A DNA stretch of 64,000 bases from Callorhinchus milii (Eukaryota), in contig NW_024704933.1 in the NCBI RefSeq assembly GCF_018977255.1, forward strand, positions 1 to 64,000. The letters are read 5' to 3'. Below, piece after piece: positions 36,505-36,602 of the stretch (within the stretch, counting starts at the first letter, position 1; each line of letters starts with the position of its first letter). A program made the position numbers and the translations under genes. The notes under the pieces were generated by a model. The model ran no database searches. It had not been told where the DNA came from and worked only from the letters and a program-made list of their open reading frames with translations.

Positions 36505-36602
36505 TCACGGTGGAGAAGCAGTGCGGATGCAAGGAACAACTCCGCTGGAACGTCAGGTGCAAGCTGTGCCCATCGACCGTCGATCAATATTTCTGCAAGT
36601 AG
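36505..36602 (+). CDS. wnt5-like: Wnt5-like exon 6 (C-terminus)
   Basis: cccag acceptor in phase 1; VTVEKQCGCKEQLRWNVRCKLCPSTVDQYFCK* resembles Wnt5 CKKC.EIVDQFVCK*. The six exons total 1155 nt in frame. Confidence 0.9.

Follow-up and report, generated by a model that had tools for sequence, protein, structure and literature searches.

An amplified lamprey Wnt5 family with a probably rebuilt index-finger tip and altered lipid-acceptor and Wntless-contact motifs

The stretch of DNA analyzed here, hereafter the window (64,000 nucleotides, contig NW_024704933.1, filed under Callorhinchus milii), carries an intact six-exon Wnt5-like gene on the + strand whose product departs from canonical Wnts in all three hairpins. 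Both hairpin-1 tryptophans are absent, phenylalanine stands at the equivalents of G207 and S209 in the thumb, and the index finger has no WCC. Phylogeny and motif comparison have shown the clade to which the gene belongs to be a lamprey-specific, amplified family derived from somatic Wnt5. Judged from the codons, the tip of the index finger was probably rebuilt, not erased: the canonical F-H-W persists as L-R/H-W moved by two residues, and the Cys-Cys pair is gone.

Results

The Wnt gene and its terminal exon

The gene has 384 open codons and encodes 22 cysteines; two lie in the signal region, and the mature protein keeps the other 20. All five introns are GT-AG with agreeing phases (Table 1). 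The hydropathy of exon 1 (11-residue window) peaks at 2.05 at residue 12, the S-W-W position is conserved, and the segment is a putative signal peptide; P0011, a relative from Petromyzon, shares this start. Exons 2–5 each score above the 20.3-bit cut-off of the Pfam wnt profile (PF00110). Exon 6 alone reaches 10.5 bits, below this cut-off, over profile positions 276–305 of 305. With a profile made from 54 canonical Wnt5 rows, exon 6 was recovered among 1736 six-frame peptides at an i-E of 4.5e-4, covering positions 333–364 of 364, and the next non-gene peptide had an E of 1.1.

Table 1. Features of the Wnt5-like gene and its neighbour (positions in the window).
Feature	Position	Strand	Description
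Exon 1	23794..23885	+	Start codon, signal-peptide-like segment up to S-W-W
Exon 2	25425..25663	+	N-terminal helices, c1-c4 all present; Pfam wnt E 2.5e-14
Exon 3	27252..27547	+	Helical core; Pfam wnt E 4.7e-16
Hairpin 1 (exon 3)	27320-27409	+	Without WxWGG, without the c7-c8 Cys pair
Exon 4	35553..35669	+	Phase 0-0; thumb/hairpin 2; four Cys retained
Gly two residues ahead of lipid Ser (exon 4)	35592-35594	+	Now Phe
Lipid-acceptor Ser position (exon 4)	35598-35600	+	Now Phe
Exon 5	35887..36199	+	Gly-rich linker, then first half of C-terminal domain; Pfam wnt E 1.4e-17
E-L-V-H-V segment (exon 5)	36037-36078	+	Nearly invariant in 9 clade rows
Intron 5	36200..36504	+	GT-AG, phase 1; position common to Petromyzon and Lethenteron relatives
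Exon 6	36505..36602	+	Index finger/hairpin 3, final Cys, stop codon
Finger stem (exon 6)	36522-36569	+	Tip 36531-36557
ADGRL (latrophilin)-like neighbour exons	48840..58671	+	Identity to L. reissneri ADGRL3-like; exon map, tree

The intron 5 donor at 36199 (AAG/gtgagc) and the acceptor at 36505 are phase-compatible, and the frame closes at a conserved C-K-stop. Six candidate acceptors between 36200 and 36700 have at least 13 pyrimidines in 20 positions, and the one at 36505 has the top tract (17/20). Translation of 36519-36569 (+) reads QCGCKEQLRWNVRCKLC, a finger of the form C-G-C-KEQLRWNVR-C-x2-C. As the original prediction had stated, F-x-W-C-C is absent as written from this exon and the four stem cysteines keep their canonical spacing, C-x-C-x9-C-x2-C, which is shared by 83 of the 85 other named Wnt5-like matches listed.

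That the terminal exon is wrong or missequenced, and that a normal tip lies elsewhere, is scarcely credible and already largely refuted. The assembly is indeed gapped, with one probable indel error in the ADGRL gene nearby, and an identical protein bears a species label that does not fit; yet 20 database proteins share this exon, and 19 of these come from independent lamprey annotations of two genera. The possibility, raised with the original prediction, that another terminal exon encodes FHWCC was followed up by a six-frame motif search of the whole window, which revealed no further Wnt-like exon with WCC, and by the acceptor scan; neither gave an alternative terminal exon. The interval 23794-46700 contains no N bases, and hence no gap between the Wnt gene and its neighbour in which such an exon could hide. 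The gene models of relatives in the database, made independently, share the same terminal exon, and four models (P0018, P0019 and P0030 of Petromyzon, and P0010) end or diverge at the position of intron 5. A second Wnt copy in the window was also rejected, as tblastn with 5 clade and canonical proteins matched the six exons only, apart from an N-terminal extension of P0001. This 63-aa extension looks like an annotation artefact made of repeat-region pieces (20806-20868 and 21698-21799).

The start of intron 4 (35670-35730) gives a translation that resembles read-through segments of the P0007 and P0034 models, and at this level the intron start is conserved between Petromyzon and Lethenteron. 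Three Petromyzon "isoform X2" models (P0021, P0022 and P0026) skip the thumb exon, a phase 0-0 cassette, in frame. In these annotation models, skipping would remove the thumb and its four cysteines.

Origin of the DNA

The protein labelled Callorhinchus milii in the database (P0001), on a 101,503-bp contig, is identical to the window gene model. Besides P0001, a search with exon 5 returned nine Lethenteron reissneri proteins at 53-94% identity. The ADGRL exon of the window is 97-98% identical to L. reissneri ADGRL3-like, compared with 84-89% for Lampetra and 70-84% for the aligned gnathostome rows. With Wnt exon 5 at 94% and the ADGRL exon at 97-98% identity to L. reissneri proteins, an origin from a cartilaginous fish was excluded. 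By these matches the window DNA is lamprey and Lethenteron-like. The elephant-shark label is most simply, and probably, a contamination or mislabelling in public annotation; the available parts of PMC8302630 contain no statement on contamination.

Three tandem, near-identical gag-pol LTR retroelement copies, about 6.6 kb apart, occupy positions 1-21000, and a fourth, related element lies on the minus strand near 40583-45979. Within Wnt intron 3, a 987-codon open frame (29923-32883) reads like an endonuclease-reverse transcriptase LINE element, and an approximately 87-base tandem repeat (33710-34130) resembles part of a reverse-transcriptase element. The ADGRL olfactomedin exon (55594-56165) aligns in two parts, with a change of reading frame at a G-rich run near 55950-55975, which may be a frameshift or an assembly indel. 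Two L. reissneri models are fused to other genes: in P0010 the intron-5 donor of a clade Wnt is spliced to a FOXO3-like part, and in P0124 an ADGRL is joined to an Eph ligand-binding domain. Both are probably annotation joins of neighbouring genes.

A lamprey-only clade

The profile search scored 8000 candidates, and the best 120 of its 397 matches, mostly Wnt5-named proteins, are listed. Motifs were counted over 112 named matches from this search and the exon-5 search, with eight unnamed rows excluded. The clade comprises 27 of the 112 rows, of which 12 were placed by the tree and the others by shared motifs and similarity; at least 16 are Petromyzon marinus proteins contributed by the profile search and 10 are L. 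reissneri rows. Among these matches, the KEQL tip occurs in 20/27 clade rows (Lethenteron and Petromyzon) vs 0/85 other Wnt5-like rows, or in 20 of the 21 clade rows with a complete finger, six clade models being incomplete there. The F-x-W-C-C tip shows the reverse distribution, with 1/27 clade rows (P0004) vs 83/85 others, and the two exceptions outside the clade come from models whose end diverges or is cut short. Both the thumb motif C-H-G-x-S-G-x-C and the hairpin-1 motif W-x-W-x-G-C were found in 0/27 clade rows vs 84/85 others among the matches listed.

In a tree of 37 Wnt5-like rows (midpoint root, long branches), which tests position within Wnt5 only, the 12 clade rows group with a support of 100/100 and adjoin the canonical lamprey Wnt5 proteins P0023/P0025. 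P0004/P0104 branch first, and the 10-row KEQL subclade is supported by 99/97. The nearest solved structure by sequence is Wnt5a (E 6.9e-80 vs 9.6e-56 for Wnt3a), and the PDB ranking is Wnt5a > Wnt3a > Wnt7a > Wnt3 > Wnt8. With this ranking as a Wnt5, and with no WntA in lamprey according to PMC6060547, identity with WntA was rejected. The supplements of that study hold 24 sea lamprey Wnt sequences, which may include the KEQL clade. The only hagfish protein among the matches listed is a canonical Wnt5, and the ESM Atlas returned ordinary Wnt clusters only.

P0004 of L. reissneri has lost the hairpin-1 Trp and has Thr at the lipid site, and its F-R-W-C-C tip is intact. This suggests that P0004 is a natural intermediate and that the tip was altered after the other two hairpins, because the first-branching protein combines altered hairpins 1 and 2 with the old tip.

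The index-finger tip

When the tip is read in register, the step from F-H-W-C-C-Y to E-Q-L-R-W-N takes at least 11 base changes over nine tip codons. The shifted reading, with a two-codon insertion ahead of F-H/R-W and deletion of Cys-Cys, takes 3-4 base changes and two indels. L-x-W is found in 14 of the 20 KEQL rows, as L-H-W in all 12 Petromyzon rows with a finger and as L-R-W in the window protein and P0002; the remaining six rows, from Lethenteron, lack the Trp. The Val equivalent to V337 is invariant in the 16 rows compared, Glu occupies the position of F331, and the tandem disulfide described for the Wnt tip (PMC4068752, PMC13434646) is absent.

In an AF2 model of the protein alone, strands 411-427 and 431-446 (numbered as in P0001) pair into the finger hairpin, where the pLDDT of the block is 83-92, and L-R-W sits at its apex. 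The mean pLDDT was 76 and the pTM 0.71, with an alignment that included 54 canonical rows, so that the model leans to the canonical fold. A Foldseek search gave 10 matches at E<=0.001, all of them Wnt structures. The proposal that the Wnt scaffold is preserved is borne out by this model, and the proposal that the tip is lost is borne out in part: F-x-W-C-C and its tandem disulfide have gone, but L-x-W at the apex and the V337-equivalent Val survive. Frizzled site 2 is, as far as its residues tell, strongly altered, not necessarily dead.

How such a tip might behave can be gauged from mutants of Wnt3a. C335A, V337R and F331A/W333A abolished reporter activity and W333A nearly abolished Fz8-CRD binding, but F331A, W333A and C335A were still active in zebrafish embryos (PMC4068752). 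This last result is one of the points in favour of a lipid-free Frizzled ligand with a retuned grip, in which site 2 of one particular Frizzled CRD would still be engaged by the shifted L-x-W and the Val, and the lipid would be partly replaced by bulky residues of the thumb (F-E-F in the window protein; V-L-F, E-L-F and L-L-F in relatives). The codons fit the shifted register, L-x-W is present in most KEQL rows, including every fingered Petromyzon row, and the Val does not vary; moreover, Drosophila WntD binds and signals through Fz4 (PMC3206050) lipid-free (PMC10112924). We nevertheless regard a retuned Frizzled ligand as unlikely, given the Glu at the F331 position, the missing tandem disulfide, the six KEQL rows without Trp, a thumb that belongs to the most variable stretches of the clade (rank 256 of 348 windows) and the loss of Fz8-CRD binding by S209A and W333A in pull-downs (PMC4068752).

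Lipid-acceptor and Wntless-contact motifs

Wnt5a grips WLS with the WxWGG of its first hairpin, with its lipidated second hairpin and with the WCC tip, and all three hairpins are required for WLS export of Wnt5a and Wnt3a (PMC13434646). In the same study, Trp mutants in hairpins 1 and 3 blocked surface delivery and secretion, and Wnt3a G207T abolished lipidation. The window protein lacks all three sequence marks of a lipidated, PORCN/WLS-dependent, two-site Frizzled ligand. We infer one account for the three hairpin changes, namely an exit from the Porcupine-Wntless route, because Wnt3a and Wnt5a mutants in these motifs lose lipidation or export. The original prediction had proposed that both Frizzled-binding sites are remodelled. 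This agrees with the replacement of the lipid Ser by Phe, the altered tip and the preserved scaffold, but the tip change need not concern Frizzled alone, because secretion, too, depends on the tip through its contact with Wntless.

All Wnts analysed carry palmitoleate except Drosophila WntD, according to a 2023 review (PMC10112924). WntD has no lipid and is secreted without Wntless (PMC10112924), and the same would be predicted for the lamprey clade from its motif loss. WntD also has a role in germ-cell migration (PMC3206050), a likeness to the putative germ-cell role of the lamprey clade. The two are nevertheless distant: WntD is insect-specific and signals through Fz4 (PMC3206050). Orthology was rejected, as WntD (PDB 4KRR fragment, E 8e-10) was the weakest of the 10 PDB matches, and the likeness is in mechanism only. 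The clade resembles Wnt5a/Wnt5b (PDB 9Z67 and 9Z4H; lamprey P0023/P0025) in its fold, 20/24 cysteines, finger stem spacing and terminal C-K, but unlike canonical Wnt5 it lacks WxWGG, the lipid Ser with its preceding Gly, the WCC tip and the c7-c8 and c20-c21 pairs. The canonical P0025 model likewise reads through the exon 4/5 boundary. Within a search lacking most subscription journals, we found no description of a lost lipid site or tip in lamprey Wnt5.

Sequence conservation and disulfides

The cysteine pairing scheme used here (c7-c8, c20-c21 and so on) is presumably that of Wnt3a/Wnt8. The c6/c7 columns and the Petromyzon c15 column were misplaced in the alignment, and these cysteines were assigned by spacing against P0004 and the raw sequences. 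Every KEQL row has lost both partners of c7-c8 and of c20-c21; P0006 and P0007 also lack the pair c3-c4, and P0012-P0018 and P0085 the pair c14-c15. Exceptions to paired loss are P0009/P0010, which may keep an unpaired c4, and P0017, which gains a Cys. Function is favoured because cysteines vanish as disulfide pairs and the fold persists.

Identity within eight KEQL rows was 0.82 for exon 6, 0.54 for the thumb and 0.63 overall. In a ranking of 348 windows by conservation, the tip 9-mer came 92nd (the thumb rank is given above). Seven sites were invariant in eight canonical rows and invariant but different in eight KEQL rows, and five of these fall in exon 6 (Fisher p 3e-4); with 54 canonical rows, the number was three of six. 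These exon 6 figures are inflated and the independence assumed by the Fisher test is broken, because exon 6 looks homogenised among the Lethenteron copies. P0003 is 88-94% identical to P0006, P0007 or P0009 in exon 6 and about 50% identical in other parts (P0003/P0006, 0.94 vs 0.49), which suggests exon-level gene conversion among Lethenteron copies. The window protein and Petromyzon P0011 also share more in exon 6 (0.81) than elsewhere (0.68), and this excess would not stem from conversion, because the two genera split about 30 million years ago (PMC10166183). The E-L-V-H-V segment of the linker is partly structural, with a fixed Tyr-to-His change, a point against the ROR/RYK reading discussed below.

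We weighed these observations against decaying duplicates, that is, copies that have lost their interaction motifs and are ER-retained or inert, with an apparent conservation produced by conversion and recent amplification. Truncated, fused or out-of-frame database models (P0010, P0018, P0019, P0030, P0034 and P0104) and the homogenised exon 6 would fit decay, as would the poor secretion of normal Wnts with S209A, W333A or hairpin-1 Trp mutations (PMC4068752, PMC13434646) and the generally fast evolution of germline genes (PMC10166183), and from such broken or fused models some clade copies may be dead. For the clade as a whole decay appears improbable: the window gene retains six exons with an open frame and clean splice sites, four different disulfide pairs were each lost as a pair, and the K-E-Q-L-x-W-N-V tip is identical in two genera that parted about 30 million years ago, between which conversion is impossible. 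The window gene would accordingly be expected to encode a folded Wnt with a putative signal peptide, because the frame is open, cysteine losses are paired and a Wnt fold is predicted.

Relation to germline-restricted chromosomes

Of the 19 Petromyzon matches listed, 16 are clade members and the other three are canonical. None of the three Lampetra Wnt5 matches listed is in the clade, and we take the Lampetra assemblies used here to be somatic. The contigs that carry the L. reissneri clade copies measure 29-383 kb. Like the clade Wnts, the neighbouring ADGRL is multi-copy and sits on small contigs, and in its tree the window ADGRL groups with small-contig copies of Lethenteron and Petromyzon, apart from one chromosomal Lampetra copy. 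The Petromyzon KEQL protein P0015 and the ADGRL protein P0133 are both on contigs of 3,387,610 bp. The L. reissneri assembly with the 10 clade rows is described as muscle and also as germline (PMC10166183).

These patterns resemble what is known of sea lamprey germline WNT5A/WNT5B paralogues, which like the clade are multi-copy and on unplaced scaffolds (PMC10166183, PMC9090840, PMC12184396). Germline-specific intervals of the sea lamprey contain 15 WNT5 and 8 ADGRL annotation rows, partly redundant, and the listed germline loci include XP_032800292.1, XP_032800882.1, XP_032800895.1 and XP_032801421.1 (PMC10166183 Table S3). ADGRL thus belongs to the same germline gene set (PMC10166183), and the clade Wnt of the window likewise adjoins an ADGRL gene. 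Three germline WNT5 loci had 636-2154 counts in prospective males vs 6-23 in females (PMC9090840 supplement), whereas the first eight germline WNT5 models in a PNAS 2025 table have values of 0-3.6 (PMC12184396), in a study that speculates on a role in sex determination for them like that of mammalian WNT4. WNT5A/B is also among the families eliminated in hagfish and lamprey alike (PMC10972751).

On this indirect evidence the KEQL family is likely to be restricted to germline chromosomes, and the clade and the catalogued germline WNT5 copies are probably the same genes. Five published germline scaffolds were compared with the P0026 contig, and none matched it in size. Three canonical Petromyzon proteins were found among the matches listed vs four somatic WNT5 paralogues counted in PMC9090840, so that one somatic copy could be of KEQL type. 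The germline WNT5 papers treat these genes as ordinary WNT5 by name, and the parts available mention neither loss of the lipid site nor loss of the tip.

Discussion

The explanation that we rank first, tentatively and as a good possibility rather than a probability, is an unlipidated, Wntless-independent Wnt5 derivative acting through a lipid-independent partner of the ROR/RYK type. The evidence dividing such a partner from a retuned Frizzled ligand or a decoy is thin. The gene is one copy of the amplified lamprey family that arose from somatic Wnt5. Changes in all three hairpin motifs, compared with Wnt3a and Wnt5a mutants, suggest that the Porcupine lipid and normal use of Wntless were lost; any export of the protein would be in soluble form, as for Drosophila WntD, and a standard Frizzled grip would be weak or absent. 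The index finger appears to have been rebuilt once and then held, and the thumb appears to be still drifting. This difference makes it likely that a lipid-independent partner binds at the finger together with the linker next to it.

The likeliest partners would be the Wnt5 receptors ROR2 or RYK. ROR2 pulls down Wnt5a S244A, the WIF domain of RYK/Drl has no acyl pocket, and Drl protects a single segment of DWnt-5, which belongs to the linker (bioRxiv 2021.04.29.442059). This segment corresponds to the conserved E-L-V-H-V segment of the clade. A ROR/RYK-type partner is ranked first because ROR2 and RYK appear not to need the lipid and the matching linker segment is nearly invariant. The pair of DWnt-5 and Derailed/RYK offers a precedent, in that a reportedly non-acylated Wnt5-class protein is bound, probably through its linker; DWnt-5 keeps the thumb Ser motif (bioRxiv 2021.04.29.442059), however, whereas the sequences of the lamprey clade no longer contain it. 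RORs are moreover thought to be co-receptors cross-linked to Frizzled (bioRxiv 2021.04.29.442059), so that they might stay inactive with a ligand that fails to bind Frizzled.

A related consideration underlies the reading as a decoy or antagonist, which the original prediction had named beside a different receptor and which we hold to be rather unlikely. The protein would occupy ROR, RYK, glypicans or secreted Wnt inhibitors without recruiting Frizzled, and somatic Wnt signalling in the gonad would be damped or redirected, with the dose provided by a high copy number. That Wnts are thought to cross-link Frizzled to co-receptors (bioRxiv 2021.04.29.442059), that the fold is kept while both Frizzled sites are changed, and that the family is amplified to at least 16 Petromyzon and 10 L. 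reissneri database proteins are all consistent with a decoy; a finger that was rebuilt and then retained suggests a specific new contact, which passive titration would not need.

For a lipid-independent ROR/RYK-type ligand, location on germline-restricted chromosomes would make the family a germ-cell-made signal in the testis-forming gonad. The fullest version of this proposal, a germline-chromosome family of lipid-free Wnt5 derivatives that works outside Porcupine, Wntless and Frizzled, reaches a new receptor through its rebuilt finger and carries a germline-to-soma testis signal, we regard as doubtful in its entirety. If the germline WNT5 genes are the KEQL proteins, a WNT4-like action in the standard way would be unlikely. 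Multi-copy, male-biased germline genes are of relevance to sea lamprey control, and the altered proteins offer a possible template for soluble Wnt5-type ligands or blockers. The lamprey sequence filed as elephant shark can mislead surveys of Wnt genes. A vertebrate family that has altered all three hairpins and lasted for about 30 million years would show, as an experiment of nature, how Wnts can be secreted and received without lipid; were the germline-to-soma reading true, it would provide a vertebrate Wnt working lipid-free and a direct handle on lamprey sex determination.
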